A DNA stretch of 64,000 bases, taken from a virus. The translations under genes were made by a program, and so were the position numbers. The stretch is from IMG/VR virus record IMGVR_UViG_3300042907_001596, positions 1 through 64,000 of that record. One strand, 5' to 3'. This document shows, in pieces, positions 22,987-60,004 of this stretch (the first letter of the stretch is position 1; each line of letters begins with the position of its first letter). Under the pieces are notes generated by a model, which saw only the letters and a list, made by a program, of their open reading frames with translations, was not told the DNA's origin and searched no databases.

Positions 22987-23027
22987 GGAATATCTGCCCG
23001 CCTCCCGGCGTTCTTGTAGATGGAGGG
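22987..23027 (+). promoter_or_regulatory. Class-1 promoter GGAAT-N18-GTT-N8-TGGAGGG (copy 1)
   Basis: GGAAT 22987, GTT 23010, TGGAGGG 23021; same spacing in seven copies. Confidence 0.8.
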
Positions 23028-23056
23028 GCCAGGTGGCTCCGCCGGGAGGGATCGAC

Positions 23057-23482
23057 ATGGGAAGGTTTGCCAAGCTCGACCTGGGTTGGTTCTGCTGCGA
23101 CGGTTGGCGTTGCGCGGATTGTCACCGGCTCAAAGAAGGATCTGGCGGCGTCTACAGCCTCTGCGTCCTAGGTGTGCTGTGCGGTGCTTGCGAGCACGAA
23201 GTGGAAGCCGGTATCCCGGCCCCGCCCGAACCACCCGCCCCCGAACTGAAGGGCGCAGCTATCGCGCTGGACGCCTACGGACTGGGCATCGTTCGATTCT
23301 ACGGCCCCGACGCCGAAGATCACGCGCTGGCCTTCCTAGCCCGCAAAGATGCTGAAGAGGTGCGGGAACTGCCCATCGACCGGGCCTACGAACGGCTGAT
23401 CGAAGCCCTCTACCCACAATGCGAACACGGCCTGGAACTCGCGCTGTGTGCAGGCCCCGGCCACTACCCGATGGATATGTGA
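23057..23482 (+). CDS. Hypothetical Cys-rich protein
   Basis: RBS GGGAGGG, ATG 23057; CxxC pairs and C-terminal CEHGLELALCAGPGHY. Confidence 0.65.
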   Translation: MGRFAKLDLGWFCCDGWRCADCHRLKEGSGGVYSLCVLGVLCGACEHEVEAGIPAPPEPPAPELKGAAIALDAYGLGIVRFYGPDAEDHALAFLARKDAEEVRELPIDRAYERLIEALYPQCEHGLELALCAGPGHYPMDM

Positions 23483-23661
23483 TGAAAGCCTGCCGCGAGT
23501 GCTACCACCTGGCCGACGAGCCGAAGCCGCACAGCATCCTGTGCTCCAAACGGGAGCCGGTGACCTGCTCTCACTGCGGGGCGCAGTTCCGCATCCCCGG
23601 TCAGACGTACGGCTTCAGCCACTGCGACCTTCACGCGGAATACACCCCGCTGCCCGACTAG
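23482..23661 (+). CDS. Small Zn-finger-like protein
   Basis: TGATG coupling; CRECYH, CSHCG, FSHCDLH. Confidence 0.6.
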   Translation: MKACRECYHLADEPKPHSILCSKREPVTCSHCGAQFRIPGQTYGFSHCDLHAEYTPLPD

Positions 23662-23702
23662 GGAATGTCCGGCCTCCCCGCTACGTTGTAAGTAGTGGAG
23701 GG
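23662..23702 (+). promoter_or_regulatory. Class-1 promoter (copy 2)
   Basis: GGAAT 23662, GTT 23685, TGGAGGG 23696. Confidence 0.8.
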
Positions 23703-23708
23703 AGAAAT

Positions 23709-23918
23709 ATGGACAGGATCACTGAGCGCGACGTGGACGACCGTCCGTTCGACCACGACGGCGAACTCGTGACCGCCGAAGAGTGGTGGGAGCACTTCCG
23801 CGCCGAAGCCTGCTGCCGCGACTGGCACCAAGCCGCCGCACTGCTGTGCGGCTGCGGCGGGTCGGGCGCACTACCCAGCGGCATCAGCCGCTTACTGATT
23901 GGAGAGGAGGAGTTATGA
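23709..23918 (+). CDS. Hypothetical protein
   Basis: ATG 23709 with RBS GGAGGGAG, directly behind the promoter motif. Confidence 0.65.
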   Translation: MDRITERDVDDRPFDHDGELVTAEEWWEHFRAEACCRDWHQAAALLCGCGGSGALPSGISRLLIGEEEL

Positions 23919-24076
23919 CACCGCACGAAGCGGAAAAAATCCGCCGCCGGGATCGCACCCAGCGGGGGCGCTCCCCTGCCCAGCGCACTACGCGCAGCAA
24001 GGACAAAGGCCGCGCCGCCAAACGCCCCGGTAAGGGGGAGCGCAACGCATGGAAGAAAGCCCTCGTCAACGCCTGA
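23915..24076 (+). CDS. Small basic hypothetical protein
   Basis: RBS GAGGAGGAG, ATGA overlap, Arg/Lys-rich. Confidence 0.6.
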   Translation: MTPHEAEKIRRRDRTQRGRSPAQRTTRSKDKGRAAKRPGKGERNAWKKALVNA

Positions 24077-24264
24077 TCTGGCATCGACGCAAAGGGCTGG
24101 GTGGGCTGTACGCCCGCCTGCCCGACAAACAGTCTTACGACATCACCCTCGCCCCGGTCGACGGCTATTACCTGTCACTGGTGCTGCCCGACGACCGGCG
24201 GATCACGCTGGGTCACTTCGGCAAGCAAGTGGAAGCGAAGCGGTTCGCGGAAGCGAGGGAATAA
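24049..24264 (+). CDS. Hypothetical protein
   Basis: RBS GGGGAG; stop TAA overlaps the next GGAAT. Confidence 0.55.
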   Translation: MEESPRQRLIWHRRKGLGGLYARLPDKQSYDITLAPVDGYYLSLVLPDDRRITLGHFGKQVEAKRFAEARE

Positions 24265-24298
24265 CCCCGGCACTCCCAGCGTTGGACTAGGTGGAGGG
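24258..24298 (+). promoter_or_regulatory. Class-1 promoter (copy 3)
   Basis: GGAAT 24258, GTT 24281, TGGAGGG 24292. Confidence 0.8.
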
Positions 24299-24309
24299 AA
24301 GGAAACAGA

Positions 24310-25626
24310 ATGACTGCCCCAATCATCATCGCCCCGGCCGACGAAGCCGTGGTGCTGCACATCCCCGCCTACCGGCGGGACGACCTCGACCACAAACTGG
24401 CTATCGCCAACCGCCGCTTAGAGCGCGGTGGTGTCGACGGCCGGTTCAGCTACGTCGCGGTGCCCGTTGAGCGCAAGATCCGCAAAGGCGCGATCGAACT
24501 GCCCGACGGCACTTTGTTCGGCGGCACCGAAGTGGTTGAACCCTGGCTGGACATCACGCTCGACGCCCTCAAGATCGGCGGCGGCGACCACACCTTCGTT
24601 GCGGCCCTGGTGGGCGAAGAGGCGGGTTACACCGTCCACTGCGCTCCCGGCCAAAGCCTCGACGGCTGGGTGCGCCCGCCGGTGGACGACATTCACTGCG
24701 ATCACTGCGGCCTGAAGCGCGACCGCCGCCGGATCTACATCGTGCGCGACGACCGGGACGGCAAGCTCCTCCAGGTCGGCCACTCCTGCATTGAGCTTTA
24801 CACCGGCCTCAAGATCAAGGGCCTGTGGGCGCTGGAGTTCGGCAAGGAACTGCGCGGCTGGGCCGACGAAGACACCGGCGGCGGCTTCGGTGACCGCGAC
24901 TACGGTGCGCCGGTCGACAAGGTGCTGGCGCTAGCCTTCGCTTTCGCTGACGAAGGCCGCAGCTACGTCTCCGTCAAAGCGGCGGAAGCCGGGGTGGGTG
25001 ACGCCACCGGCGGTCTGGTGCGGAGCGCACTGTTCTTCCCGCCCCGGCCTCCCCGCTCCGGCGCTAGCCCCCGCGAGCACGCGGCGTACGAAGACTTCCT
25101 CGCAAAGGTGCGCCTGGCTGAGGTCTTCGTCACCGACGCCGCCCTCATCGCCGGGATCCGCGAAGCCGCCGACACCTTAGAGGCGGGCACCGACTACGGC
25201 GACAACATGAAGGTCATCCTCGCCGGGGAGTACGTCTCCGGCCGCAACGTCGGGATCCTCGCCTCGCTGGTCGCGGTCTACGCCCGCGAGAAGGAACTCG
25301 CCGTCAAGCGGGAGCAGGAAGCGAAGTCGCCTCCGGCGAAGGGGTTCCTCGCGGAGGTCAAGGTGCGGGTGCGGGATCTGGAACTGGCCCTGCGGACGGT
25401 GAAGTCCTGGGAAGGCCAGTGGGGCTGGACGACCCTCCTGGTCGGCCGCGCCGCCACCGGGCACACGGTCAAGTGGTTCGCCTCCGGCTCGCTCGACCTG
25501 GAGCCGGGGGACACCCTCTTCCTGAAGGCCGCAACGGTCAAGGCCCACGAGGTCTACGAAGGTGTCGACCAGACGGTCATCACCAGGGGCGTCATCGACC
25601 ACGACAAGATGGGCGCGGTGGTGTAA
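24310..25626 (+). CDS. Hypothetical protein with Zn-ribbon and C-terminal OB-fold-like region
   Basis: CDHC...QVGHSC; C-terminal VKWFAS...ATVKAHEVYEGVDQTVITR; strong RBS. Confidence 0.7.
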   Translation: MTAPIIIAPADEAVVLHIPAYRRDDLDHKLAIANRRLERGGVDGRFSYVAVPVERKIRKGAIELPDGTLFGGTEVVEPWLDITLDALKIGGGDHTFVAALVGEEAGYTVHCAPGQSLDGWVRPPVDDIHCDHCGLKRDRRRIYIVRDDRDGKLLQVGHSCIELYTGLKIKGLWALEFGKELRGWADEDTGGGFGDRDYGAPVDKVLALAFAFADEGRSYVSVKAAEAGVGDATGGLVRSALFFPPRPPRSGASPREHAAYEDFLAKVRLAEVFVTDAALIAGIREAADTLEAGTDYGDNMKVILAGEYVSGRNVGILASLVAVYAREKELAVKREQEAKSPPAKGFLAEVKVRVRDLELALRTVKSWEGQWGWTTLLVGRAATGHTVKWFASGSLDLEPGDTLFLKAATVKAHEVYEGVDQTVITRGVIDHDKMGAVV

Positions 25627-25657
25627 AACGGCAGAACCCGCCAGGGAAAGGGTGAAG
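25622..25657 (+). promoter_or_regulatory. Class-2 promoter-like motif TGTAAA-N18-GAAAGGGTGAAG
   Basis: Both boxes and spacing are identical to the copy at 51132; separate RBS GGAGG at 25672. Confidence 0.62.
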
Positions 25658-25685
25658 TCAACGCCCACCCTGGAGGGTTCTTTTT

Positions 25686-27398
25686 ATGCCGCCCGCCTAC
25701 CGGCTTTACACCTTCGGTGGCACCGGAAACCTTAGCGTCGCGCTGGGGAAGACGGCCGTCGACCCCACTTACAGCACGGCGTCCGTCGACTACTCCCAGG
25801 CGGGCTACGGAGCGCAGATCGCCCAAGGAGTAAACCCCCGCCAGGTGGAGTGGGTGCCGGTGGCGTACGCCGCAGCGGCCTACCCGATGAATGTGTCCGT
25901 AGCGACCGCAGTCAACCGCACCGTCTCTATGATCCTCGCCAACCCCGGCAAGATCTTCCTGGCAGGAACCAGCCAGGGTGCGTACGTCACCAGCCAGCTT
26001 TGGCGGGAGTTCACCACCGGCCGTCTGGTGAGCCGCCGTGCCGACCTCGTCCGCATCTACCACTACGGCAACCCGCTGCGCCAAGCCAAGATGTTTCGCG
26101 GCACCCGTAACCCCGGTGGGCACGGCTGCGCCGCAGCGAACCTTCGGCTGACCAACACCGACCCGGCTGTCGTGTGGGAGTTTGCCAACCCCGGCGACCC
26201 GGTGGCAATCCAGTTTGACGACCAAAAGGGCACCTGGGCAGCGAGCTTCTTCGGCATCCTCAACCAGAACGCGACCAGCGTCTCGACGCTGGCGGCGCAG
26301 ATCTCCACGCTGCTCCTCAAACCCAACGCCAACCTATCCACGCTGGTGTCGCTCATCAACGACTTGATCAACAACATGCTCAACCAGACCGGCAAGCACA
26401 ACGCCTACCAGAACTTCTTCCCGTTCGGGGGGACGAAGAGTTCCGTGCAACTGGCGATAGACGACATCGCCACCATCGTCGGCGCACCGTCATCGAAGAC
26501 CCGGCATTACATTGCAATCCCTCCGGCGCTGTCGGTTGACGACCTCACGAAGACCTGCACCGGCATCAAAAACCTCAACATCGGATCGGTGCGGATCCCG
26601 GTGCCGTGGGGGGCAGCGCAGACTTCCGCGACGACCTTCGCGTGGACACCTTTCGACCAAGCCGTCAACGCCGCCCTCACCGCCGGACTGCGGATCCTGC
26701 TGGTGATCGCCCCTACCCGGCCGGAGTGGGCGACCGTCGCTACGTCCAACCTCAGCTTCGGCACCTTTGCCGCTGCTGTTGTGTCCCGCTACCGCCCCGG
26801 CGGCACCGGGGTCATCGCCAGCAACGCCGGGAAGGGTGCGGAGGAGTACCAAGTTTGGGACGAGCCGAACGTCATTGAGAACCTAACGACCGGCGATAAT
26901 CCAACCGCGTCAGGCTACGTCGCTTACCTTCGGGAAGCGTACGTCGCCATCAAGCGAGAGCAGCCAACCGCCACGGTGGTATTCGCCGGACTCCAAGCCT
27001 GCACCACCCAAACAATCGCCGCTGCCCGCCGGGTATCCCGCGCCGCCCTGACAACTTCCGCCAACATCGACCCCGTTACTTTCCTCACCGACTGCTACGC
27101 CGCCGGGGCAAAGCCTTTCTTCGATGTGATGGCCTACCATCCGCTGTCGATGGCGACTCGACAGAAACCTCAACCGCCCGCGCCGAGCGTCAACCTCATC
27201 GCCCAGTCCGACAGCATCAACGCCCTGATGGTGGCGAAGGGCGACGGCACCAAGCCGATGTACTGGACGCAAGTCGGCTACAACACCGCACTGATCACCC
27301 AAACCCAGCAGCAGGCATACCTGGACACGATGCGGTGGCTGGCGCACGAACGCACTTATGTGACCGGCATGGTCGTATCGGGATACCGGGATTTCTGA
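25686..27398 (+). CDS. Cutinase/LysB-like esterase fused to GH5/GH39-like (clan GH-A) barrel
   Basis: GTSQG elbow, YGNPLR, FANPGDP, KHNAY; then VRIPVPW, VWDEPN, DVMAYHP, YWTQVGY. Confidence 0.78.
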   Translation: MPPAYRLYTFGGTGNLSVALGKTAVDPTYSTASVDYSQAGYGAQIAQGVNPRQVEWVPVAYAAAAYPMNVSVATAVNRTVSMILANPGKIFLAGTSQGAYVTSQLWREFTTGRLVSRRADLVRIYHYGNPLRQAKMFRGTRNPGGHGCAAANLRLTNTDPAVVWEFANPGDPVAIQFDDQKGTWAASFFGILNQNATSVSTLAAQISTLLLKPNANLSTLVSLINDLINNMLNQTGKHNAYQNFFPFGGTKSSVQLAIDDIATIVGAPSSKTRHYIAIPPALSVDDLTKTCTGIKNLNIGSVRIPVPWGAAQTSATTFAWTPFDQAVNAALTAGLRILLVIAPTRPEWATVATSNLSFGTFAAAVVSRYRPGGTGVIASNAGKGAEEYQVWDEPNVIENLTTGDNPTASGYVAYLREAYVAIKREQPTATVVFAGLQACTTQTIAAARRVSRAALTTSANIDPVTFLTDCYAAGAKPFFDVMAYHPLSMATRQKPQPPAPSVNLIAQSDSINALMVAKGDGTKPMYWTQVGYNTALITQTQQQAYLDTMRWLAHERTYVTGMVVSGYRDF

Positions 27399-28555
27399 TG
27401 ACACAAAACAGCTACGGACTCTTTGACTCCAACTACGCCGCTAAGAAAGCAGCAGCATCGGTAGCCCGATGGAATGACGGCGTGAAGCGCCACACCCTTT
27501 ACACGGTGTGCGGCACCACCCAAGACGGCTGGGGCATCGTCAACATCCCGTACGAAGCCGAAGCCAAAGCGGCGCTCTACAAGCTGTACTACTCAATCGG
27601 AGGCACCGATCCTCCGCCGGTGGATGGAGAGCGCGGCCCGAACATCAACCTCATCAACACCGATGCCGTCGTCGGGGTGTACGCCGACCCGGCGCTGTTC
27701 AACTGGGTGCCGGTGAGCTACCCGGCGTCGATGCCGACTGGTGCGGGCCTTCTCGACAACGACTGGCAGCCGCAGAACATCTCTTTCCTCGACTCTGTCA
27801 CGCTGGGCGTGAAGGAACTGACCAGCCTAATCTTAGCCACACCGGGAACCTTCGCTCTGGTGGGAATGAGCCAAGGAGCGATGGTCATCACCAAAGTTTT
27901 GCACGCGATGATGACGCCGGGGACGGCGCTGTCAGCGCGGATGGGGGACTGCATCGCCGGGTTGGCATATGGAAATCCGCACCGCAAGCCGGGGGCGTCT
28001 TTCACCGGCGGCACCCACCTCAAGCTCAACGTCGGCGGGGTGAGTTATGTCGGCGGCGGGCTGTTCTCGTCGGCACCTCCCGCCACCACCCCGGCCGCTC
28101 TCGCCCAGAACATGCTGCTAGGAAATGGCAGTGTCACCACCCCCGACTGGTGGTGGGAAATGTGTACACCCAACGACTTCTTTGCCGACTCCCCGATCAC
28201 CACAATCGCCGGTGCGGTGATGGGAGAGATTGCCCGCGTCGCCGTCGGCATCAGGGGCGGCATTGACCCAATGGAGATGATGAGAAACATCGCGGGTGCG
28301 TTCCTCAAGCCGGGTGCGATCACCTGGGATGGATTTGCCTCGCTGCTCCAGACGCTGTCGCAGCCGAAAGTCACTAAGGTCATCACCGACTGGCTGGGGG
28401 CGTTCTCCGCACCGACACCGAACCCGCACATCTTGTACGGGGTGCTCTCGCCGCCGACCCTGCCGACCGGGCTGGGCCTCGCGCCGAAAGCAACGTACCA
28501 CGAAGTCGGCGTCGCTTACATGAACGCACGCGGCAGAGCTATCGCCCCGCGTTAG
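27398..28555 (+). CDS. Cutinase/LysB-like alpha/beta hydrolase
   Basis: LVGMSQGA, YGNPHR, CTPNDFF, PHILY triad motifs; TGATG overlap. Confidence 0.78.
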   Translation: MTQNSYGLFDSNYAAKKAAASVARWNDGVKRHTLYTVCGTTQDGWGIVNIPYEAEAKAALYKLYYSIGGTDPPPVDGERGPNINLINTDAVVGVYADPALFNWVPVSYPASMPTGAGLLDNDWQPQNISFLDSVTLGVKELTSLILATPGTFALVGMSQGAMVITKVLHAMMTPGTALSARMGDCIAGLAYGNPHRKPGASFTGGTHLKLNVGGVSYVGGGLFSSAPPATTPAALAQNMLLGNGSVTTPDWWWEMCTPNDFFADSPITTIAGAVMGEIARVAVGIRGGIDPMEMMRNIAGAFLKPGAITWDGFASLLQTLSQPKVTKVITDWLGAFSAPTPNPHILYGVLSPPTLPTGLGLAPKATYHEVGVAYMNARGRAIAPR

Positions 28556-29049
28556 GCTCCGCGAATCACTTCGTTGTAGTTGAAGTCGGTGCCTAGTGCC
28601 ACATGAATAGTGATCGGTGGCCCATCCAGTGCGTGCCGCTCTTCGTTGTACAACAGTGCCCAGCGGGGAATGGTGACTTCCCCCCGAACAAATCTCCTCC
28701 CCAGTTCGGTGAGCCGCCAAAACCCATTGCGCGGATTACCGTCGGCCTTCTCGCCGTCGCGCCCCTCAATCAAGCCCCAATGCTGAGACTTCACAGAGTC
28801 TCCACCTTTATCGCCGGTAAGGCTGGGAGTGTGATGCCAACCGTGAGGGTCTTCCCGATACATCGCCACCATTAGTCGGGCCATCTTGGCGTCGAAGGGA
28901 CGCACCGACATGGCGACATTTTGTCGGCAAGCGGGGCACTCCACCCCAGGATTGGCTTTCAGCCTGCCGGTGCGCCCACGCTTTGTTGGAATTAGCCGGT
29001 CAAGGATCCACCGGCGCACTTCGCCTAACGTCGTTTCGTCAGGGAACAT
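28552..29049 (-). CDS. Hypothetical Zn-ribbon/winged-helix-like protein
   Basis: CPAC; WGLIE...GFWRLTELGRRFV; directly downstream of the helicase. Confidence 0.62.
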   Translation of the reverse strand: MFPDETTLGEVRRWILDRLIPTKRGRTGRLKANPGVECPACRQNVAMSVRPFDAKMARLMVAMYREDPHGWHHTPSLTGDKGGDSVKSQHWGLIEGRDGEKADGNPRNGFWRLTELGRRFVRGEVTIPRWALLYNEERHALDGPPITIHVALGTDFNYNEVIRGA

Positions 29050-30948
29050 CTACCCTCCAAAGATCAGAAACTCCAGGTTGTCGTTCTCCGACCGGCTGGA
29101 GGAGTAGGACATCGCCTCCGTCGTACCGAGCGTTACTGATGCCAACTCCCGGCGGTCGTTACATATTCCCCACACCCGCTGCTCGACGGAATCGTCGGTG
29201 ACGTAGACGTACGCCGTCAGCCCGTCCAGGTAACTGTCGGCCCGGTCGATGCGGTTGGAGCGTTGCATCAAGATGTCCCACGAATACGGCGACTCGTAGT
29301 GAATGACGTAGCGGGCTTCGGTCATGTTCAGCCCGAAAGCCCCGGCGTCGGAGGACAGGAACACGGTGATCGCCGGGTCGGACTTGAAGTCCTCCTGGGC
29401 CTGCTGGTTCTCCCCGGCGGTGCGCCCGCCGTGGTGGGTAACGTACTTGATGCCCCGGCTCGTTAGTCCGGCGGCGATCAGATCCAAACTCATCGTCACC
29501 CACTGGGTGAAGATCAGCGTCTTGTCGCCGGAGTCGCGGATCGCCTCCACTTGGTCTAAAACGGCCTCCAGCTTCACGCTGTGCGACGAACTGACGAGGG
29601 TGGGGTGATCCTCTGCCAACTGCTTGCCGAACGGGTCTGTCGTCCATCTGAGGGCTTCGGGGTTGTTGCAGACGTACCGCAGCAGCCGGTAGAACGGCAT
29701 CAGGTTCTCCCCGACCGCCGCCGCCAGCCGTGCTTCCTCCACGATCACGTCGTACAGCCGCCGATCCTCCCGGCTCAACTGCACCGGCACGGTCACGGTT
29801 TGAAGGCCCTTGAAGTTGTCGCGGACGGCCGGGTCGGTTTTGCGCACCGACTGGGTGCGGTCGCACACCCGGTGACGCACCTCGTGCAACCGGGCCAGAT
29901 CCCACTCGTAGAAGGTGACCGGGAAGGTACCGTACCGGGTGGGCATGTTGTGGACTCTGACTTCTGCGGCGTACCGCTCCACGAAGCCCTGCCGGGAACC
30001 CAGCGGATTGTCGCCGGGGCCAGACAGCGCAAACACATCCCGGTACCGCAGGGGGCTGGCCGCGACGACCGACGCCGACATCGGCCACACCGTGGCGTGG
30101 CAGTTGAAGACCAGATCATCGAAGCGGCGGCGGAACGTGTTGGGCTTGTCGTCGGTTAGCAGCTTGGAGGCTTCGTCCGCGATGATCAGCACCCGGCGTC
30201 CGGCGGTCAACTCACTCAGAGCGCCGAAGTCCACGCGGGCCTTCTCGTAGTTCAGGACGTACACGTCGTGTCCGGCGGCGTAGCCTTTCCGGCGCTTCGC
30301 CGGGGTGCCGTCGTTGACGACGGCGTCCAGCCCGGTGGTGGAGGTGATGAATCGGCACAGGTTGGTCTTGAGGGGGCCGAGAGTGAAGGCCAGGATCACA
30401 TCGACAAGACCCCGGTTGACCATCTCTTGGGCACCGGCGGCGGCGAAACAACTCTTGCCCGTCCCGGTGGCCCACCCGACGAAGGTCAGCCGCTCGTCAG
30501 GGCGAGAAGCGTGCGCTCGCTCCAGCGCCCGGTTCAGGGTGAAAGTCTGGTAGGGGTACAGGCTGCCCTCGCCGGGGCAGACGAACCCGGCGATGTCCAG
30601 CGGCTGCTCCCACCGGGCGACCGCCTCAAGGATGGGGGCGCAGGAAGAGCCGAACAGCACCGTCCAGTCATCCTTCTCCAGAAGCTCAACGAAGTCGTGC
30701 AGCAGGAATAGCTCGTTAAGGCACAGATGCCGCGACAGCCACTCGCTGTAGGTGGCGAGGAACGGCGGCGGGTTGACGGTTTGAAACAGCAGGCTGCCGG
30801 GGTAGGAGGGATGCTGCTCAACGACTACCAGGCGATCGGGGTCGACGCCCTCGACCGCTGCGGCGAGGTCATCGGTGATCGGATACACCCCACCAACATA
30901 CCGGATGAGCAGGTGTTTCACTGATGTAGTTGCACTCGTGTCATTCAC
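29050..30948 (-). CDS. SNF2-like (SF2) DNA helicase
   Basis: ATGTGKS, IIADEAS, MSAS, FLSSDAGAFGLNM, QRSNRIDR motifs. Confidence 0.88.
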   Translation of the reverse strand: MNDTSATTSVKHLLIRYVGGVYPITDDLAAAVEGVDPDRLVVVEQHPSYPGSLLFQTVNPPPFLATYSEWLSRHLCLNELFLLHDFVELLEKDDWTVLFGSSCAPILEAVARWEQPLDIAGFVCPGEGSLYPYQTFTLNRALERAHASRPDERLTFVGWATGTGKSCFAAAGAQEMVNRGLVDVILAFTLGPLKTNLCRFITSTTGLDAVVNDGTPAKRRKGYAAGHDVYVLNYEKARVDFGALSELTAGRRVLIIADEASKLLTDDKPNTFRRRFDDLVFNCHATVWPMSASVVAASPLRYRDVFALSGPGDNPLGSRQGFVERYAAEVRVHNMPTRYGTFPVTFYEWDLARLHEVRHRVCDRTQSVRKTDPAVRDNFKGLQTVTVPVQLSREDRRLYDVIVEEARLAAAVGENLMPFYRLLRYVCNNPEALRWTTDPFGKQLAEDHPTLVSSSHSVKLEAVLDQVEAIRDSGDKTLIFTQWVTMSLDLIAAGLTSRGIKYVTHHGGRTAGENQQAQEDFKSDPAITVFLSSDAGAFGLNMTEARYVIHYESPYSWDILMQRSNRIDRADSYLDGLTAYVYVTDDSVEQRVWGICNDRRELASVTLGTTEAMSYSSSRSENDNLEFLIFGG

Positions 30949-31077
30949 GCGATAGAACTATTTCGCACGGTGCTATCAGGCGAGTCCACCGTAACCAGAC
31001 CGCCCCGGTCACTATCCTGTACCGGCAGGATGTCAAGGCAAAGGCCACGTCTTGGCAATACCGAAACCGCATGTCCT

Positions 31078-45716: not shown

Positions 45717-46424
45717 ATGGGGAACAGACCCCTAGGAGATCTGGCGGAGTCGGTAGCTGAACAGCTAGCGACCGAGAGCTTCGCCCCGCTGACTGAGGAA
45801 ATCCTCACCGAAGAGGACGCCATCGAATCCCAGCGGGCCAGCATCTTCTCTAAGATTCGCTTCTCGTGGCGACCCGAAGACCGTGCCATCCTCGACCGTA
45901 TCCGGCTGGCGTCGGACTCTATGGTGGAGGAAGCCTTCGGGGAAGCCATTTCCACTATCGACCGCTTTTACGAGCAGCTTCGGATACCGGAGACGACGTG
46001 GGTCGACAACCATGAGGTGGTGCGGCGAGGGCCGGACGGCCGGGTGGTGTGGAAGCGGTCGGACGAAGGAAAGATCATCGAACGGTGGGATCAACTCACC
46101 GGGCCGGACATTGAGATGACCATCGCGGATCTGCTCCGGCTCAAAATGCTTATCGCCCCCCAAGTCAACCAACTCCTCAACGAAGCCATCTACGCTAAGC
46201 ACGTTGCGTCCGACGCTTACGACGACGCTTGGGGCACCGTCATCCAAGGCACCCAAGGCGACCGCACTGCCAAAGCCAACCGGCAAAGCCGCCAAGACCG
46301 CTACCACGCCCACTTCCGCTACGTTCTCTACTCCACCGCCAACACTTTGGTGCGCGAAATCGTGGTGTTTATCAACCGGCTCGCAGACATCCGCGAGTGG
46401 CAGATCCGAAGCCAGCCACGGTAG
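45717..46424 (+). CDS. Hypothetical helical protein
   Basis: RBS GGGAGAGGT; long ORF in operon. Confidence 0.72.
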   Translation: MGNRPLGDLAESVAEQLATESFAPLTEEILTEEDAIESQRASIFSKIRFSWRPEDRAILDRIRLASDSMVEEAFGEAISTIDRFYEQLRIPETTWVDNHEVVRRGPDGRVVWKRSDEGKIIERWDQLTGPDIEMTIADLLRLKMLIAPQVNQLLNEAIYAKHVASDAYDDAWGTVIQGTQGDRTAKANRQSRQDRYHAHFRYVLYSTANTLVREIVVFINRLADIREWQIRSQPR

Positions 46425-46428
46425 TGCT

Positions 46429-46902
46429 ATGGCCCGCCGCCTCCCCGACGACCCGGTCAAACGCCGCCTCCAACACTTCAAGAGGCTCTACCAACACTTA
46501 GAGCACTGGAAAGTGTTGCTGGAAACCGGCGACATGAGTCACCTCATCACCGTGCCCGAAACCGGTGAGGAAATCTATCTTCTCGACCTGATGGTCGGCA
46601 TCGACTCGCTGCCACCCCGCCAGCGCGAAGCCTTTGAGTTGATCTGCCTACTGGGGTACACCGAAACCGATGCCACCCGCAAAATGTTGCCCCACTCCCG
46701 ATGGTCGACCCCGATACAGCAGTACGCCGATACCGCACTGGCCCGCATGGTGGCCGCATACGACGCCGCCCAAAGCGGCAGCTACACCCACACCGTCTAC
46801 ATCAAAAAAGGGGCCAAGCCTGTCGAGGGAGCTTGCCCCACTTCACCAGGAGAGCACGATGAAGAACGAGATCCCCGAAGCAAAGCTGATGCCCCTACTT
46901 AG
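46429..46902 (+). CDS. Sigma-70 region-4-like HTH protein
   Basis: IDSLPPRQREAFELICLLGYTETDATRKM resembles sigma region 4; no region 2 recognisable. Confidence 0.65.
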   Translation: MARRLPDDPVKRRLQHFKRLYQHLEHWKVLLETGDMSHLITVPETGEEIYLLDLMVGIDSLPPRQREAFELICLLGYTETDATRKMLPHSRWSTPIQQYADTALARMVAAYDAAQSGSYTHTVYIKKGAKPVEGACPTSPGEHDEERDPRSKADAPT

Positions 46903-51128: not shown

Positions 51129-51131
51129 AGC

Positions 51132-52017: not shown

Positions 52018-52034
52018 GGAAGGAGACACCTTCG

Positions 52035-52426: not shown

Positions 52427-52501
52427 AGCGTGTCGCACTCCCCCGGTAATAACAAAGCTGTAATCTAGGTGGCAGTGCTGGCAGGATAGAGGAGGAGGGC
52501 G

Positions 52502-52912: not shown

Positions 52913-53054
52913 GCTACGGCGAGAAGCGACGATCCGCAGCCTCCTGCCGGTGGCCGGGGTGCGAAGACACCGGGACGGCGCTGGCCCTCGACCACACCGG
53001 CAAGCCGCAATGGTTCTGCCCTAGCCACCACGCCCACCTGAAGGGGAAGAAGCC

Positions 53055-53777: not shown

Positions 53778-53898
53778 TGGCTAAACACCGATGGAAAGGC
53801 GCGGCGAAGCGCAACGCTTACGCCGTGATCCTCACCCCCAAGATGGGCTGGGTGCGGTGCTTTCACTGCGGCCACGAAGACATCCGGTTGATGCCGCT

Positions 53899-54543
53899 GT
53901 GAGCGCCACCGTGTGCTTCCCCTGGCGGGCGCAGCCCGACCGCCTCGCCGCCCACGATCGCTGCAAAGCGTACTGGGAAGAGGCGGGCTTCCCGGTGGTT
54001 GAAGCCGACAGCGACCCATCCCGGCCGTTTGTGTGCAACGAAGCCCGCAACAATGCCGCCGCGCTGGCCGACACCGACATCCTGATCATCGCGGACGCCG
54101 ACACCCTGCCCGACCACCTCGACCAGATCACCGCCGCGATCAAACTCATCGAAGACGATCGTGCCGACATCGTGTGGCCGTTCACGCTGTACCGCTACAT
54201 TCCCAACGGTTGGGACTCCGCCTTCTCCGAAGCGGCCATCGTGGGGGAAACCTACCTCAGCCCCGGCGGCATCGTGGTGGCTGGACGCGACCCGTTCTGG
54301 CGGATCGGTGGATACGACCCGCGCTTCATCCCCGGTGCGTCCGGCTTCGATGACACCGCCTTCCTTAAGGCGGCGCAGACCCTCACCAGGGTCACCCGCA
54401 TTTACGGCACCGTCTGGTCGTGGGATCACCCGATGTCGGTGGAGCGCCAGTACGACGAAGACAATCCGAACTATCCGCGCTTCCGGCTGTACGAGTATGC
54501 CGACGGTGACCAGGAGTTGATGGTTGAGGTGGTGCGGCGATGA
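53899..54543 (+). CDS. GT-A glycosyltransferase (galactosyltransferase-like)
   Basis: VCFPWR, ARNNAA, IADAD, GGYDPRF...GFDD; start inferred at GTG 53899. Confidence 0.8.
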   Translation: MSATVCFPWRAQPDRLAAHDRCKAYWEEAGFPVVEADSDPSRPFVCNEARNNAAALADTDILIIADADTLPDHLDQITAAIKLIEDDRADIVWPFTLYRYIPNGWDSAFSEAAIVGETYLSPGGIVVAGRDPFWRIGGYDPRFIPGASGFDDTAFLKAAQTLTRVTRIYGTVWSWDHPMSVERQYDEDNPNYPRFRLYEYADGDQELMVEVVRR

Positions 54544-54743
54544 AGAGTGAGCGCCAATTTTCCGCATTGGATCACTACAATTCCGCTGCTGCCAGCCTCC
54601 AGCAGATCGCGGAAAAGCATGACGAGCCTGACTTCGGCGTGGCCGACGCTGCCCTGCTCCTCAACGTCGCGACCACCCATGCCCTGCTGGGGCTGCTGAA
54701 GCTGGGTATCACCGACGCCCGCTTCGCTGGGCGGATGGAGTGA
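54540..54743 (+). CDS. Hypothetical protein
   Basis: ATGA overlap; ATTHALL motif. Confidence 0.55.
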   Translation: MKSERQFSALDHYNSAAASLQQIAEKHDEPDFGVADAALLLNVATTHALLGLLKLGITDARFAGRME

Positions 54744-54744
54744 G

Positions 54745-54954
54745 GTGTTGAGGACTCCCGGCCAGGAGTACACCGCTGAGTGCGATGACACGACTTCGCC
54801 GGAATGTGAACACACCACCAAGATCAGCGCCATCAACGACGCCACCGCGCTGTATCTGCTGAGCCGGAAAGGGTGGCTCACCACGGTGGTGTACGGGGCG
54901 GAAATCCGTAACGAACTGACCTGCCCTGCCTGCGCGTTGCGCCGCAATGATTGA
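54745..54954 (+). CDS. Small Zn-finger-like protein
   Basis: CD...C, GW, TCPAC. Confidence 0.55.
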   Translation: MLRTPGQEYTAECDDTTSPECEHTTKISAINDATALYLLSRKGWLTTVVYGAEIRNELTCPACALRRND

Positions 54955-55186
54955 CAGTGTGGGTGTTAAAGTTATCCCACAGCACGAATCCCAGGAGGAC
55001 ACGGTGAAGCAAGGGTATTGGGAGACGAGGGCTGCCCAGTTGGTGCAGCAGTCCTCCGACCACTCACCGCTGCTGAACCAATGGATTGAGCGGCTGGGTA
55101 AGTCTCACGACAGCCTCATCCAGTTGTTCATCCATTCCATAGGTGGAGACAATCCAAGTCGACACAACAACTCAAGGGAGCAGTAG
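54947..55186 (+). CDS. Hypothetical protein
   Basis: In-operon ORF; start uncertain. Confidence 0.4.
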   Translation: MIDSVGVKVIPQHESQEDTVKQGYWETRAAQLVQQSSDHSPLLNQWIERLGKSHDSLIQLFIHSIGGDNPSRHNNSREQ

Positions 55187-55354
55187 ATGCTTCAGATCAT
55201 CATAGGAGTCACCCCACTACTCGCCGGGATCTGGCTGCTGTACCGCCACGACGAAGACACCCACATGCTGGCGTTAGGCATCATCGCATCGGTCATCCTG
55301 ATCGGGTGCGTTCTACTGCTCCTGAGCGGGGTAGGAAAGGTTCTGCAACCATGA
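55187..55354 (+). CDS. 55-aa two-TM membrane protein (not in ORF track)
   Basis: RBS AAGGGAG; two hydrophobic stretches; ATGA overlap with the peptidase. Confidence 0.55.
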   Translation: MLQIIIGVTPLLAGIWLLYRHDEDTHMLALGIIASVILIGCVLLLLSGVGKVLQP

Positions 55355-56049
55355 CACGCACCTTCGGTCGATTCGTTGAACACGACCCCCGCAGCCGGAT
55401 GTTCGCCGCCCCCACCCCCCCGACGAAGCGGTCGGTGTTGTGGGCGCACCACGGCCCAGTACTGGATCAAGGGGAGATGGGATCCTGCACCGGCAGTGCC
55501 GCCGCGCAACTGATCAACACCGATCTGTTCGCCGCCGTACGCCCGAAGGGATACCTCACCCAAAACGACGCCATCAAGCTGTACGCCAGAGCGACGATGC
55601 TGGACGACGCCCCCGGCACCTTCCCGCCGGACGACACCGGCTCCTCCGGTTTAGCGGTCGCTAAAGCCGGGGTGCAGATGAAGTACTTCGGCGCGTACAA
55701 GCACGCCTTCGGGTTCGACAAGTTCTGCGCCGTCCTGCAAACCAGCCCGCTGCTGGTAGGGACGAATTGGTACACGTCGATGAACAAAACCTCCACCACC
55801 GGGCTGGTGACTGTGCGCGGCCAACTGGAAGGGGGACACCAGTGGCTGGCAATAGGGGTGGACTACGAGCGCCAGCAGATCACCGGCCTCAACAGTTGGG
55901 GGCCGACGTGGGGAAAGAACGGCCGCTTCTTCCTGAGCTTCACCACGATGCGCAGGCTGCTGGCCGAACAAGGCGACGCTGTCGCCCCCACCCCGGCGGT
56001 GAAGCGCACCCTGCTTTCCTTCATCCTGCCGAAAAAGGTGACGCCATGA
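55351..56049 (+). CDS. Papain-like (C1) cysteine peptidase
   Basis: DQGEMGSCTG, GGHQW, NSWGPTWGKNG. Confidence 0.85.
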   Translation: MTRTFGRFVEHDPRSRMFAAPTPPTKRSVLWAHHGPVLDQGEMGSCTGSAAAQLINTDLFAAVRPKGYLTQNDAIKLYARATMLDDAPGTFPPDDTGSSGLAVAKAGVQMKYFGAYKHAFGFDKFCAVLQTSPLLVGTNWYTSMNKTSTTGLVTVRGQLEGGHQWLAIGVDYERQQITGLNSWGPTWGKNGRFFLSFTTMRRLLAEQGDAVAPTPAVKRTLLSFILPKKVTP

Positions 56050-56447
56050 TCCGCAATGAACTGCTGTCGATGCTGGCCGATGACCGCATCACCATCCCGA
56101 CCGACCGGCTGCTGGAGCTACTGGGGGACATGAACTTCTTCGCGGACTGCCCCCCGCCGGAACTGGTCGCCATGACCGGCGACGACACCATGCGGGAACT
56201 GCTCAGTGCGATGTGGTCGGCCGGATACCGCGACGCCATGAAGGCGGTGATGACGCTAATCCCCAGGACGGAGCCGCAGAGCCGAGCCGAACTGATGGCC
56301 AAGCTCACCGACGCCCTCACGTCGTGGGAGAAGCACCCGAAGTACGGCGACAACGTGCCTCGCGGGGATGTCATCCAGGCTGCCGACGAACTGGCCACCC
56401 TCGCCGCCGAGATGCTGGACAAGCTCAAAGCCCCGATGGGAGAGTGA
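56046..56447 (+). CDS. Hypothetical protein
   Basis: ATGA overlap, RBS AAGGTGA. Confidence 0.6.
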   Translation: MIRNELLSMLADDRITIPTDRLLELLGDMNFFADCPPPELVAMTGDDTMRELLSAMWSAGYRDAMKAVMTLIPRTEPQSRAELMAKLTDALTSWEKHPKYGDNVPRGDVIQAADELATLAAEMLDKLKAPMGE

Positions 56448-56582
56448 GATGGAAGATCGCAAGCCGCAAACCGCTGACCATCTGGTCGACCAGATCCGCA
56501 CCGTAGTCGACCAAGACATCACCGCCCCCAACGAGTGGTACAAGATCATCCTGGCGGTGCGCGACCTCGTCGGGGTGACCCG

Positions 56583-56846
56583 ATGAGCGAGCCGACCTTC
56601 CAGTACGCCGTCGATGTTGATGTCGACCTCGACCTGACGGCGTGCTGCTCGCTGAAGCACATCGTCAACCGCCGCCCATTCTGTAGCCGACCGGCGGAGT
56701 GGATCGTGATGCTTGGCTGCTGCGGCTACCGCAAGCTGGTGTGCAGTCACCACCGCAATGTGTCGGACAGTGTCTTCCCGCTGATGTTCCTCTGTACCCG
56801 CTGCCACGCTCAGTACCCGCCGACGGCGGCGGCGTGGAGGGTGTAG
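56583..56846 (+). CDS. Small Cys-rich protein
   Basis: CC, CSRPAEW, CCG, CSHH, CTRC. Confidence 0.55.
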   Translation: MSEPTFQYAVDVDVDLDLTACCSLKHIVNRRPFCSRPAEWIVMLGCCGYRKLVCSHHRNVSDSVFPLMFLCTRCHAQYPPTAAAWRV

Positions 56847-57017
56847 AGGGCGATGACCTCACCACTTTGGAGGTGAGGTTGAGCCGGTACATCACCGCCG
56901 ACGGAAAGATGGCGTTCCGCATGGTCACCCCCGACAAATACAACGTGGTGGAGATGCTGGGGCTGCTGGAGGCGGCGAAGTTCACGATCTTCCACGAGAT
57001 GTCCCCGAAGGATGACG

Positions 57018-57368
57018 ATGACTGACCTACGCACCCGTATCGCCGCCGCGTGCAGCGACTACTTCGCCATGCTCCGGCGGGATGACTACGTCGTTGACGG
57101 CGTCAACCCGCAGGAGGTGGCCGACATTGCGCTCCTGGCCGTGGACTTCGACGCCTGGCTGCGCTACGGCATAGAGCAGGGCTGGTGTGGCCCGCCGTGC
57201 TGCGTCCCGCACGACGGCATCGGCATCACCACAGCCGAAGAGGCTGAGTACGACGACGGCGGCGACCCTTGCTACCACGTCCTGCGGCTATACGCCGACG
57301 CCGACACCAAAGCGGCGGTGGAGGACAACCACGCTCCGTCCATCTGGCGGGCCACCAACCTGGCGTAG
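57018..57368 (+). CDS. Hypothetical protein
   Basis: WLRYGIEQGWCGPPCCVPHDG...GGDPCYHVLRL. Confidence 0.62.
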   Translation: MTDLRTRIAAACSDYFAMLRRDDYVVDGVNPQEVADIALLAVDFDAWLRYGIEQGWCGPPCCVPHDGIGITTAEEAEYDDGGDPCYHVLRLYADADTKAAVEDNHAPSIWRATNLA

Positions 57369-57408
57369 GAATATCTCCGGCCTTCCTGGCGTTATAGCTA
57401 GTGGAGGG
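57368..57408 (+). promoter_or_regulatory. Class-1 promoter (copy 4)
   Basis: GGAAT 57368, GTT 57391, TGGAGGG 57402. Confidence 0.8.
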
Positions 57409-57436
57409 GCGAAGTGCCCCGCCGGGAAGGATCACC

Positions 57437-57847
57437 GTGGCTCCAAGCCTCGCGCACATCGACGCCATGTCAGCCAAGGCGAAGGCTGCCTTGCTGCGCC
57501 AAGACGGCGTGGAAGCCCTCAGTGCCCGGTTCATCGACTTCAAGGGTGAACCCGTACTGATCAAGCGCAGCGACGGCGTGACTGTCGTTCACTACAGGGA
57601 ACGCTACGCAGGCCAGTACATCGTCCTGTATGGCGAGAAGGATGGCCGCGTCGGTGTCACCCTCGCCACCTACAAGGTGAAGGTGACCCCCGGCCCCGCC
57701 AAGCCGGAGCGCACCGCCGACGGCGGCGTGATCTTCATGGTCAACTCCCTGTCGGTCGGCGTGAAGCGCATCAAGCGGCTGCCGCCGGGATTCCAAGGTG
57801 CGCTCAACGACGCGCAGCACGACTACGAAAGGGCGATGGAATCGTGA
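57437..57847 (+). CDS. Hypothetical protein
   Basis: GTG 57437 behind RBS GGGAAGGA. Confidence 0.62.
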   Translation: MAPSLAHIDAMSAKAKAALLRQDGVEALSARFIDFKGEPVLIKRSDGVTVVHYRERYAGQYIVLYGEKDGRVGVTLATYKVKVTPGPAKPERTADGGVIFMVNSLSVGVKRIKRLPPGFQGALNDAQHDYERAMES

Positions 57848-58004
57848 GAATCGGAAAAGCGGTCATCGGTAAGTGGGGTCGCATCGGCCTCGTCACCGAC
57901 CTGTACGGCCTGGAAGAGTTCGGCCGGATCTTTGAGTACGCCACCGTCACCTACGCCGAAGGTGACAGCGACGAGTTCCCGGTGGATGGGCTGGAGGTGT
58001 ACTG

Positions 58005-58307
58005 ATGACCAAGCAGAATAGGCACAAGCACACCGGCCGCTACGCCCCGATCTACGAGCGCGGCTACCTAGCCTCGCTGGGCAATACCTACTTCCCCAAG
58101 CGCGACAAGTTCGGGTCGCCAGCGTGGATGGCAAAACTGCACATATACGGCACCACAGCCCCCACCAATCTCAGCGTGGATGACCTCACCCAGCGAATGG
58201 GCAAGCAAGCAGCGCAGGCTTTTGAAGACGGTTGGTTCGATGCCCTAGAGGACAACGTGAGCTACGAGGAGAGCTACGACGAATGTCGAGCAGTGGACAC
58301 CGCATGA
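58005..58307 (+). CDS. Hypothetical protein
   Basis: RBS GGAGGTG, TGATG coupling. Confidence 0.6.
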   Translation: MTKQNRHKHTGRYAPIYERGYLASLGNTYFPKRDKFGSPAWMAKLHIYGTTAPTNLSVDDLTQRMGKQAAQAFEDGWFDALEDNVSYEESYDECRAVDTA

Positions 58308-58561
58308 TGGTGCAACTGGAAGTCCAGTTCAAGACCGCACGGCCAATCGGCCAAGAGGTTGGGATGGAGATGTGGCTTCTTGGCGACTACTTCGTATCGA
58401 CCGGGGCCTGCGCCTACATGCTTCAGGCAAAGGGTGAGGCGGAATCCCTCACCGATGCCGTCGAGGGGCTGGTGGCTCAGATTGGCGAGGTTATTGGATC
58501 CCCCGGTGGCTGGGATGTGGTGGTTACGAAAACCAAGGCAGAGATGGTAGAACAATGCTAG
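58304..58561 (+). CDS. Hypothetical protein
   Basis: ATGA overlap. Confidence 0.5.
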   Translation: MMVQLEVQFKTARPIGQEVGMEMWLLGDYFVSTGACAYMLQAKGEAESLTDAVEGLVAQIGEVIGSPGGWDVVVTKTKAEMVEQC

Positions 58562-58779
58562 GCCGCGCCATCGCCGCTCTGCGGATAGAGCGCGGGATGA
58601 GTCGCAAAGACCTCGTTCGTGCCGCCGGGATCTCCTATCCCTACCTGGCCGAAGTGGAGAAGAGCATCAAGCTGCCCTCGTCGGCCATGCTGGGCAAGCT
58701 GGCTGCGGCACTTCACGTCATGCCCTCCGAACTCTTAGAGCGGGCAGAGCAGATTGCCGCCGACCCCAGGAATGTCTGA
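58555..58779 (+). CDS. XRE-family HTH regulator
   Basis: LRIERGMSRKDLVRAAGISYPYLAEVEKSIKLPS. Confidence 0.85.
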   Translation: MLGRAIAALRIERGMSRKDLVRAAGISYPYLAEVEKSIKLPSSAMLGKLAAALHVMPSELLERAEQIAADPRNV

Positions 58780-58790
58780 AAGGAAACGCC

Positions 58791-58997
58791 ATGATCACCC
58801 TCACCATCACCCACGCCGATGACCGTAAGACCCGGCGGGTCACCGACCATGCCACCGCCGAAGAGGCGCAGGCCGTCCTGGTTGCCTGGGCCGACGGCGA
58901 GAAGATCAGCCCCACCAGCCCAACGACGGGAACGGTCGGGGAACGAGAAGATCGCTCGTTCTGGTATTACTCCATCGCGGAATATCAGAGCGCCTGA
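58791..58997 (+). CDS. Hypothetical protein
   Basis: RBS GAAAGGA. Confidence 0.6.
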   Translation: MITLTITHADDRKTRRVTDHATAEEAQAVLVAWADGEKISPTSPTTGTVGEREDRSFWYYSIAEYQSA

Positions 58998-59019
58998 CGG
59001 CGTTGTAACAAGTGGCGGG
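58979..59019 (+). promoter_or_regulatory. Class-1 promoter (copy 5, TGGCGGG variant)
   Basis: GGAAT 58979, GTT 59002, TGGCGGG 59013, hairpin GGCGGGA/TCCGCC. Confidence 0.75.
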
Positions 59020-59044
59020 ATCATCCGCCTGGAAGGAGACACCC

Positions 59045-59296
59045 ATGGAGTATCGCGTCGTTGGCCACGAGGTGTGGCTGTTCTACGCCGACGGTGGCGA
59101 GGAACGCTTCGCTGTACTGGAAGGCCCGAACGGTGCTGCGTTGGTAGCACGGCTGCTCAACAAAAACCTGGCTGAGATCGCCGCAGAGAAGTTGTCTGCC
59201 GAACAACTCGCCCTCGACCGCGCCCGCTACGAAGAGATGCGGGCTGAAATCGTGCGGCGCGAACGGCGTGAACGCTATGGGGTGAAGTCGGAATGA
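59045..59296 (+). CDS. Hypothetical protein
   Basis: RBS GGAAGGAG, ATG 59045. Confidence 0.65.
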   Translation: MEYRVVGHEVWLFYADGGEERFAVLEGPNGAALVARLLNKNLAEIAAEKLSAEQLALDRARYEEMRAEIVRRERRERYGVKSE

Positions 59297-59453
59297 CCTC
59301 CACCATCCCTATCACCCACCTCAAGCCCTACGAGCGGCTGTCCAACGGACGCCTCGTCGTCGCCGTTACGGTCGAGCGCGACACCGTCACTGTGACCCTC
59401 AAGGGCGGCAAGCCCATCGCCTACCCCGCCGACTACGAAGTGGATGTGAGGAT

Positions 59454-59813
59454 ATGACCAAGCCAATGGGCGTCTGCCCCGCCTGCGAGGGCAGCACCCG
59501 CCGCCCGGTGCCGGAGGCTTCCCGGCGCTACATCAAGCACAACGCCAAGTGGGGCCATTGGGGTACCGCCGGATACCTGCCCCCCGGCCCCGGCCCGTAC
59601 GTCCAAGGACAAGGCTGGGAAGAGGGCGGCACGTTCCCTTGCAACAACTGCGGCGGGCAGACGATGTTCTCCAAAGCCACCGGCGAGGTGCCGCTGCGCC
59701 CCGACGGCACACCGTGCCTGCACGAGTACACCCACAAGACGACCCGCAACTGCTATCACGAATCGACGTGCAAGCACTGCGGCTTCCACTACGCCATCGA
59801 CAGCGGCGACTGA
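59454..59813 (+). CDS. Zn-finger hypothetical protein
   Basis: CPACEG, CNNCGG, CLH, CKHCG. Confidence 0.65.
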   Translation: MTKPMGVCPACEGSTRRPVPEASRRYIKHNAKWGHWGTAGYLPPGPGPYVQGQGWEEGGTFPCNNCGGQTMFSKATGEVPLRPDGTPCLHEYTHKTTRNCYHESTCKHCGFHYAIDSGD

Positions 59814-59820
59814 CCCAGGT

Positions 59821-59929
59821 TTAGCAAGGGATGTAACGCAAATGCTAAGAAGACCCGGCAGCAGGCCGGGAACGAGGTTGGCGGGCCAACGCCTCCGTAA
59901 CCAGTCGGAGTGTTCCCACCCGTCATCCC
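59821..59929. ncRNA. Candidate structured non-coding element
   Basis: Five to six short helices incl. possible pseudoknot GGGATG/CATCCC; family unknown, strand unknown. Confidence 0.3.
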
Positions 59930-59934
59930 AGAAC

Positions 59935-59975
59935 GGAATAATCACCCCTGATCTGGCGTTATAGCTAATGGAGGG
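59935..59975 (+). promoter_or_regulatory. Class-1 promoter (copy 6)
   Basis: GGAAT 59935, GTT 59958, TGGAGGG 59969. Confidence 0.8.
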
Positions 59976-60004
59976 GCCGGGTGGCCCCGCCGGGAAGGGT
60001 TCTC

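Follow-up and report, generated by a model that had tools for sequence, protein, structure and literature searches.

The first 64,000 nucleotides (the window) of the 150,440-bp virus record IMGVR_UViG_3300042907_001596 (63% GC), from a 150-kb actinophage, contain seven copies of a promoter whose C-rich spacer can pair with the leader of the gene downstream. A preliminary description singled out four of these copies (the flagged copies) and proposed that their spacers are antisense to the downstream ribosome-binding site (RBS), so that read-through mRNA from upstream genes would not be translated. The observed stems are real, and that description is thus partly confirmed as an observation and partly supported as an interpretation. 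A purpose-built translation lock, however, is not borne out, since the stems are about what a C-rich spacer and a G-rich ribosome site give. The best reading of the flagged sites, to which we assign a probability of about 0.45, is that they are cassettes resembling the promoter-early stem-loop elements (PeSL) of T4-like phages and that they give a loose insulation, which we infer.

By consensus match, the flagged sites are one promoter family of the sigmaH/sigmaR type, as the view of them as promoters had assumed. The pattern GGAATA-N17-GTT occurs 25 times on the + strand of the genome and once on the - strand, and the reversed-pattern control gave 0 matches. Counting the GGAATG variant at 23662, there are 26 copies on the gene strand, seven of them inside the window. 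Every copy begins at or beside the stop codon that precedes it, and the start codon lies at +66 to +73 (long leader) or +47 to +52 (short leader) from the -35 element. The family consensus is GGAATAatCc...GCGTT.tA...TGGAGGGg. It agrees with the SigmaH/sigmaR/sigmaE promoters (extracytoplasmic function [ECF] group) of Actinobacteria, which have -35 GGAAT(A), -10 (c/t)GTT(gaa) and N18 spacing; the sigmaH consensus is gGGAAta / (t/c)GTTgaa, or GGAAT-N18-19-GTT (PMC10012870). The GTTGAAC form of the -10 element occurs in relatives. Unlike these host promoters, the phage copies precede small phage genes. They span 22987-60797 of the window and 65779-109441 of the genome; the copy at genome position 78987, outside the window, is the sole one without an open reading frame (ORF) at the usual distance. 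No Rfam family matched at any cassette. The copies in the window and their parts are as follows (aa, amino acids).

22987-23012, + strand: promoter copy 1, with GGAAT (-35) at 22987-22991, an 18-nt C-rich spacer and GTT (-10) at 23010-23012; the stop codon of a 1919-aa tail-region gene immediately precedes it.
23001-23010, + strand: spacer arm CCTCCCGGCG of copy 1, ending in the four bases GGCG.
23021-23028, + strand: 5' box TGGAGGGG of copy 1, in the leader of the promoter-initiated RNA.
23025-23040, + strand: 5'-terminal leader hairpin of copy 1, GGGGCC-AGGT-GGCTCC (z = -2.6, p = 0.02).
23040-23049, + strand: RBS-side arm CGCCGGGAGG of copy 1, forming 10 perfect pairs with CCTCCCGGCG.
7 nt before the ATG at 23057, + strand: Shine-Dalgarno sequence GGGAGGG of copy 1.
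23057-23482, + strand: 141-aa gene behind copy 1, without a Pfam match and with orthologues in related phage contigs.
23662-23711, + strand: promoter copy 2, short leader, with GGAAT at 23662-23666 and GTT at 23685-23687; the arms CCGCTAC (23678-23684) and GTAGTGG (23692-23698) form 7 pairs, one of them G-U.
23696-23704, + strand: TGGAGGGAG, which is itself the Shine-Dalgarno sequence of copy 2.
23709-23918, + strand: 69-aa gene behind copy 2, starting at the ATG at 23709.
24258-24312, + strand: promoter copy 3, short leader; the ATG at 24310 opens a 438-aa gene.
57368-57439, + strand: promoter copy 4, with GGAAT at 57368-57372 and GTT at 57391-57393.
57381-57391, 57406-57420 and 57420-57430, + strand: spacer arm CCTTCCTGGCG, leader hairpin and RBS arm CGCCGGGAAGG of copy 4; the arms form 11 bp, one of them U-G.
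57437, + strand: GTG start of the 136-aa gene behind copy 4.
58979-59047, + strand: promoter copy 5, long leader; the ATG at 59045 opens an 83-aa gene.
59935-60007, + strand: promoter copy 6, with GGAAT at 59935-59939 and GTT at 59958-59960.
59952-59958, 59973-59988 and 59988-59994, + strand: spacer arm TCTGGCG, leader hairpin and RBS arm CGCCGGG of copy 6; the arms form 7 bp, two of them U-G.
60005, + strand: ATG of the 51-aa gene behind copy 6.
60772-60842, + strand: promoter copy 7, with the leader hairpin TGGAGGG/CCCTCCA; the ATG at 60840 opens a 105-aa gene.

The phage proteins gave no Sigma70_r2 match, and a host stress sigma factor may therefore serve the GGAATA-N17-GTT promoters. A phage-encoded sigma factor was considered and rejected: no region-2 match was found, and the sigma-70 region 4 matches of ORF 46204-46899 (+ strand, 232 aa) are weak and below the cut-off (Pfam E = 3.6e-4; NCBIfam E = 0.05). 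The product of this ORF could be a sigma-like protein or merely a helix-turn-helix protein. Megablast found no close relatives in the public phage collection. The distant relatives, found by their proteins, are Rhodococcus phages Finch and E3 and Gordonia phage Stormageddon, and Finch has no copy of the motif.

On re-reading the sequence, all four flagged stems (copies 1, 2, 4 and 6) proved correct in letters and coordinates. Copies 1 and 4 differ at two pairs of the stem: one change is compensatory (C-G to U-A), and the other turns C-G into U-G. The spacer arm lies between the -35 and -10 elements, and transcripts from the own promoter would lack it, as had been supposed; here we infer the transcription start from sigmaH promoter geometry. 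The conserved GGCG that flanks the -10 element accounts for four of the paired bases. Among the flagged copies, the three with a long leader (copies 1, 4 and 6) have leaders that are mutual nearest relatives, at 77-82% identity where the family averages 57 +/- 12%, and that precede unrelated proteins. These leaders represent one shared leader subfamily and are therefore not independent, amounting to approximately one observation.

We compared the pairing with chance at several levels. Perfect inverted repeats of at least 10 bp with a loop of 3-40 number 5 in the window, compared with a Markov-1 expectation of 2.9 +/- 1.5. In the shuffle null, the variable spacer was shuffled and GGCGTT was kept, which removes any signal that lies in the composition itself. 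Under this null, the duplex with the whole leader gave p values of 0.33 (22987), 0.29 (23662), 0.055 (57368) and 0.31 (59935), and the duplex with the RBS window gave 0.18, 0.21, 0.037 and 0.17, respectively. The spacer-leader pairing of copy 3 was unremarkable (p = 0.96). Over the promoters of this genome, the RBS-window pairing had a mean z of -0.07 against shuffled spacers, and 1 of 25 fell below 0.05; the claim that the spacers are tuned to the RBS was not supported here. Cognate spacer-RBS-window pairs were not clearly better than permuted pairs in this genome (p = 0.107). With the whole leader the comparison gave p = 0.0046, driven by the promoters at 85394, 105898 and 108639.

A different picture emerged against random genomic 14-mers. 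The spacers bound their own RBS window with -11.9 kcal/mol vs. -9.8 for the random 14-mers (p = 0.011 in this genome), and their whole own leader with -16.8 vs. -12.6 (p = 5e-4). Over 67 promoters, the preference for the own RBS window had a p value of 4e-6. The spacers contain 56% C vs. 33% on the genome strand, and the leaders contain 39% G; CCTCC is present in 6 of 26 spacers by hand count, with approximately 4 expected from composition. Thus, in most copies it is composition, not the exact stem sequence, that exceeds chance.

The folding models are noisy, and they take transcription starts and read-through as given. The mean modelled RBS accessibility was 0.63 in promoter-initiated RNA and 0.455 in read-through RNA with the native spacer. 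Nevertheless, it was 0.466 with the spacers of other promoters, 0.477 with random genomic spacers and 0.49 with 82 nt of random upstream sequence. Since random upstream sequence gives similar accessibility, the drop is generic to a longer RNA and not spacer-specific, and spacer-specific occlusion of the RBS in read-through RNA was not supported. Individual drops were large, including 0.93 to 0.21 and 0.60 to 0.04. The predicted minimum-energy folds agreed in part with the proposed stems: the read-through fold at 22987 uses the flagged stem and buries the RBS, and the RBS is also buried at 23662 and at genome position 77893, with the promoter-initiated leaders open; the read-through folds at 57368 and 59935 use other pairings and leave the proposed stem unused.

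The RNA structure with consistent support in the models is a predicted 5' hairpin on the promoter-initiated RNA. In short leaders, TGGAGGG is the Shine-Dalgarno sequence. In long leaders, TGGAGGG forms the 5' arm of a 5'-terminal hairpin beginning 2-6 nt from the predicted transcript start, and the RBS in use is a second one (GGAAGGAG-like) further downstream. This hairpin beats shuffles in 28 of 40 long leaders (mean z = -2.5), and its stem sequences vary. Hairpins opening with the TGGAGGGG box lie at 23021-23040, 57402-57420, 59969-59988 and 60806-60826 and in other long leaders. The hairpin could be a 5' mRNA stabiliser or could hide a decoy Shine-Dalgarno sequence. We also considered a three-element switch, in which the spacer captures the 5' box and the 3' arm of the hairpin then blocks the RBS. 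This candidate was rejected, as RBS accessibility did not change when the box was blocked in 40 long leaders (0.57 vs. 0.54, p = 0.28).

The loci of homologues of the 141-aa protein behind copy 1 (91-55% identity) were compared. In L024 (91%), the leader is identical to that of copy 1, and a C to U change in the spacer keeps a G-U pair. The more distant orthologue in L025 has CCGGUG/CACCGG in place of CCGGCG/CGCCGG. The partner then switches: in L029 and L030 the spacer pairs over 9 bp with the TGGAGGGG box and not with the RBS, in L028 it pairs with upstream sequence across the -35 element, and in L021 and L027 no pairing partner of the spacer was found. On an alignment of 8 orthologues, which carries register uncertainty, the flagged stem had 57-58% of cells paired, no compensatory pair and no excess over shuffles, and it was only slightly above slid controls. 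The covariation expected of a selected stem was therefore essentially missing among the orthologues of copy 1, an outcome that the preliminary description had itself named as refuting its proposal. In addition, the L024 orthologue of the 23662 copy has lost CCTCC from its spacer, and its RBS has changed without compensation.

The comparison did agree with the suggestion that the cassettes are able to lie within other operons: the 141-aa gene stands with its own promoter in two neighbourhoods. In this window and in L021-L024, the gene and promoter follow a giant tail/baseplate gene. In L027 and L028, their surroundings are small and non-structural genes, and Ku and an ArdC-N gene lie downstream. 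The cassettes may be associated with gene shuffling: unrelated proteins stand behind one leader subfamily, and the 141-aa cassette stands in differing neighbourhoods. The same promoter type also precedes Ku and ArdC-N genes in relatives. In L025 (10857-10895), the orthologue of the gene at 23709 has its ATG only 7 nt after the -10 GTT, which points to a leaderless mRNA made from this promoter type.

Hairpins beyond composition were evident when the family was extended to 67 promoters in 9 phage contigs. Leader-type spacer hairpins, with the -10 GTT inside the loop, exceeded composition in 11 of 67 promoters (3.35 expected, binomial p = 4.7e-4), and upstream-type hairpins, with the -35 element in the loop, did so in 10 of 67 (p = 1.8e-3). 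None of the 67 promoters had both. Some of these 21 hairpins have 13-20 pairs and z values of -4 to -6. The partner in the leader type is mostly the 5' TGGAGGGG box. It overlaps the used RBS in 4 of 11 cases (L028 11921 with 20 pairs, L025 7920, L025 15067 and L028 2025) and misses it in 7 of 11. Pairing with the RBS window itself reached p < 0.05 in 8 of 67 promoters (binomial p = 0.018). In the window, the spacer of copy 7 pairs with upstream sequence across the -35 element (upstream type, p = 0.037). Outside the window, a 13-bp near-perfect hairpin at 85394-85433 of the genome, TCTGCCCGGT...ACCGGGCAGA, has the -10 element (GCTGTT) in its loop; this promoter lies 196 nt after the one at 85198, and the gene of the latter is just 38 codons long.

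Among the upstream-type hairpins are textbook terminators with a U tract, namely CCGGGGGAATAATTCCCCCGGTTTTTCT in G001 and GGGCCGGGGAATAAACCCCGGCCCTTTTCT in L027. G001 is a 44-kb viral contig of 57% GC with 14 family promoters, and it was the only relative among the few matches of a pattern scan (promoter plus box) of viral contigs. Canonical intrinsic terminators overlap the -35 element and spacer of the next promoter in G001 (L012-L014; reverse strand, 11497 and 13532) and at L027:17323-17364, so that terminator and promoter share the same 30 nt, as in CCGGGGGAATAATTCCCCCGGTTTTTCT.

Taken together, we favour PeSL-like cassettes that loosely insulate their genes. The cassette consists of a sigmaH/sigmaR-type promoter placed right after a stop codon, a C-rich spacer and a leader opening with TGGAGGG(G). 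The spacer is the sole freely variable part of the promoter, with G-rich neighbours on both sides, and incoming upstream RNA could therefore fold it on three alternative partners. The first would be the upstream G-run, with the -35 element in the loop, the arrangement that takes the form of canonical terminators with a U tract in relatives. The second would be the TGGAGGGG box, with the -10 element in the loop. The third, in one leader subfamily, would be the CGCCGGGA(A)GG ribosome site. The flagged stems would then represent a loose, composition-level form of the cassette stem-loops and not an antisense tuned base by base. The stems formed on read-through RNA probably cause some non-specific damping of transcription and translation, which, according to the folding models, probably includes partial burial of the RBS at 22987, 23662 and 77893. 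No canonical or terminator-like + strand sites were found near the promoters of the window, and read-through into the cassettes is therefore plausible.

Several observations weigh against insulation by such cassettes. Within the window, pairing beyond composition was seen only at 60772, which is of the upstream type, and was borderline at 57368. In the folding models, RBS accessibility did not respond in any spacer-specific way. Leader-type hairpins were rejected as canonical terminators, since no U tract was found after their stems, and terminator activity is therefore unproven for this type. Finally, the sigma factor may require C-rich spacers, or a mutational bias may produce them, but the spacers of G001 contain only 29% C with the same promoter and C-richness is thus apparently unneeded by it.

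The layout closely follows that of PeSL. In the T4-like phages RB49 and phi1, PeSL combine a promoter with a polyG/polyC stem-loop in five positions relative to the promoter boxes (PMC2839356). Their stem-loops are effective terminators that attenuate upstream transcription, and they precede ORFans and shuffle with them (PMC2839356, Arbiol et al. 2010). As in PeSL, small genes of unknown function are preceded by a repeated consensus promoter that fills a short intergenic gap. Also shared are a Shine-Dalgarno sequence and start codon at the 3' end of the cassette, here at a fixed distance. A G-tract/C-tract stem-loop that overlaps the -35 element, overlaps the -10 element or lies between them may be a further likeness. 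The cassette is likewise common to unrelated genes, and genes travel with it. By layout, the role proposed for PeSL, attenuating incoming upstream transcription, would fit here as well. Unlike PeSL, the promoter is of the ECF sigmaH/sigmaR type and not of the sigma70 type, the host is an actinobacterium, a stem-loop beyond composition is found in only about one-third of the copies, and the leader-type stems run from C-arm to G-arm without a U tract. Terminator activity, cassette recombination and mini-circles are features of PeSL, whereas the present cassettes are known from sequence alone. The cassettes also recall the start-associated sequences (SAS/ESAS) of Cluster K mycobacteriophages, where a conserved asymmetric box lies just upstream of many actinophage starts and about half of the SAS have upstream imperfect inverted repeats of unknown function (PMC3203893). 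However, ESAS are conserved 17-bp repeats that would suit a protein site, whereas the arms here vary in sequence, and SAS have no attached promoter consensus.

A bolder proposal is that an actinophage lineage independently evolved PeSL-like mobile cassettes on a host sigmaH-type promoter, using the spacer as a hairpin arm, so that each small gene would be expressed only from its own promoter. A -35 element in the loop would mark a terminator, and with a -10 element in the loop the stem would pair with the 5' box or the RBS. A subset would be true T4-e-like locks (e.g., L028 11921 with its 20 pairs, L025 15067, 77893 and 23662). We regard this as speculative and, as a whole, rather unlikely.

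The alternative that survives best is a pure by-product. C-rich spacers would arise from a promoter or sigma preference or from a strand mutational bias, G-rich leaders would arise from strong Shine-Dalgarno sequences in a high-GC host, and the complementarity would have no function. The failure of the exact stems to beat shuffled spacers is consistent with this, as are the approximately 3 inverted repeats of 10 bp expected per window by chance, the lack of a spacer-specific modelled effect and the lack of covariation among orthologues. On the other hand, the spacer hairpins beyond composition in 21 of 67 promoters, with 13-20 pairs, z values of -4 to -6 and canonical terminators in some, are difficult to reconcile with it, and the promoter runs in G001 on spacers that are not C-rich. 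We consider a pure by-product unlikely.

Next comes the lock of the preliminary description in its strict form, in which the stems of the flagged copies were selected to hide the RBS on read-through mRNA and leave the RNA from the own promoter translated. The geometry matches that of T4 e, soc, 49 and I-TevI, in which an inhibitory helix contains the late promoter in its 5' strand (PMC3014915). In both systems this helix is able to sequester the Shine-Dalgarno sequence, and the transcript from the embedded promoter is without the 5' arm. The buried RBS in the minimum-energy folds at 22987, 23662 and 77893 and the large individual drops in accessibility fit such locks. So do the p values of 0.037 at 57368 and 0.05 in its relative in L024, the stem that survives a C-to-U change in L024 through G-U, the exchanged CCGGUG/CACCGG of L025, the 8 of 67 family promoters with RBS-window pairing, and striking RBS-covering stems in L028 11921, L025 7920 and L025 15067. 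Nevertheless, this genome as a whole showed no enrichment over shuffled or permuted spacers (mean z = -0.07; 1/25; p = 0.107). Swapped, random or shuffled spacers gave equal modelled occlusion. The 8 orthologues lacked covariation and switched partners, and the 23662 copy changed without compensation in the 91%-identical L024. Furthermore, most hairpins beyond composition avoid the used RBS, and the four flagged copies were hand-picked among seven. The T4 helices are conserved among relatives and experimentally shown, with a 100-fold effect for gene e (PMC3014915), whereas the pairing here is approximately that of composition in most copies, is not conserved and usually favours the 5' box over the used RBS. 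Selected locks at the flagged copies are therefore quite improbable, and present evidence is no basis for repeating the claim that the spacers are tuned antisense.

A DNA-level role, either a cruciform exposing the -10 element or a protein-binding palindrome controlling the promoter, is very improbable: the -10 GTT does lie in the loop of leader-type hairpins and an unrelated 140-kb contig (G004) does carry a conserved palindrome, TGACGGTCGTCA, within its spacers of this promoter type, but the G-U pairs in the stems (57368, 59935 and 23662) would be mismatches in DNA and on the other strand, the arm sequences vary between copies, which leaves no common operator, and we know of no cruciform requirement of ECF sigma factors. 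In G004 (IMGVR_UViG_3300036790_000048, L018), a 139.6-kb phage contig, TGACGGTCGTCA is present in the spacers of all 7 GGAATA-N17-GTT sites and looks like an operator inside an ECF-type promoter.

Two further features of the window were recorded. An Rfam match to the int-alpA small RNA (38 bits; gathering score 35.8) lies at 62457-62529 (+ strand), just upstream of a long ORF starting at 62576. A 731-aa ORF at 10783-12978 (+ strand) contains approximately 8 tandem copies of a 189-nt (63-aa) unit with 60-80% identity at 10992-12846, a pattern as in repetitive tail-fibre-like proteins.

For annotation, the analysis provides a promoter motif with 26 copies, a constant distance from promoter to gene start by which start codons can be assigned, and a conserved 5' leader hairpin. 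If the cassettes insulate, the promoter-plus-stem-loop design of T4-like coliphages would extend to high-GC actinophages, on an ECF-type stress-sigma promoter, and would help to explain how small accessory genes can be dropped into structural operons without disturbance.

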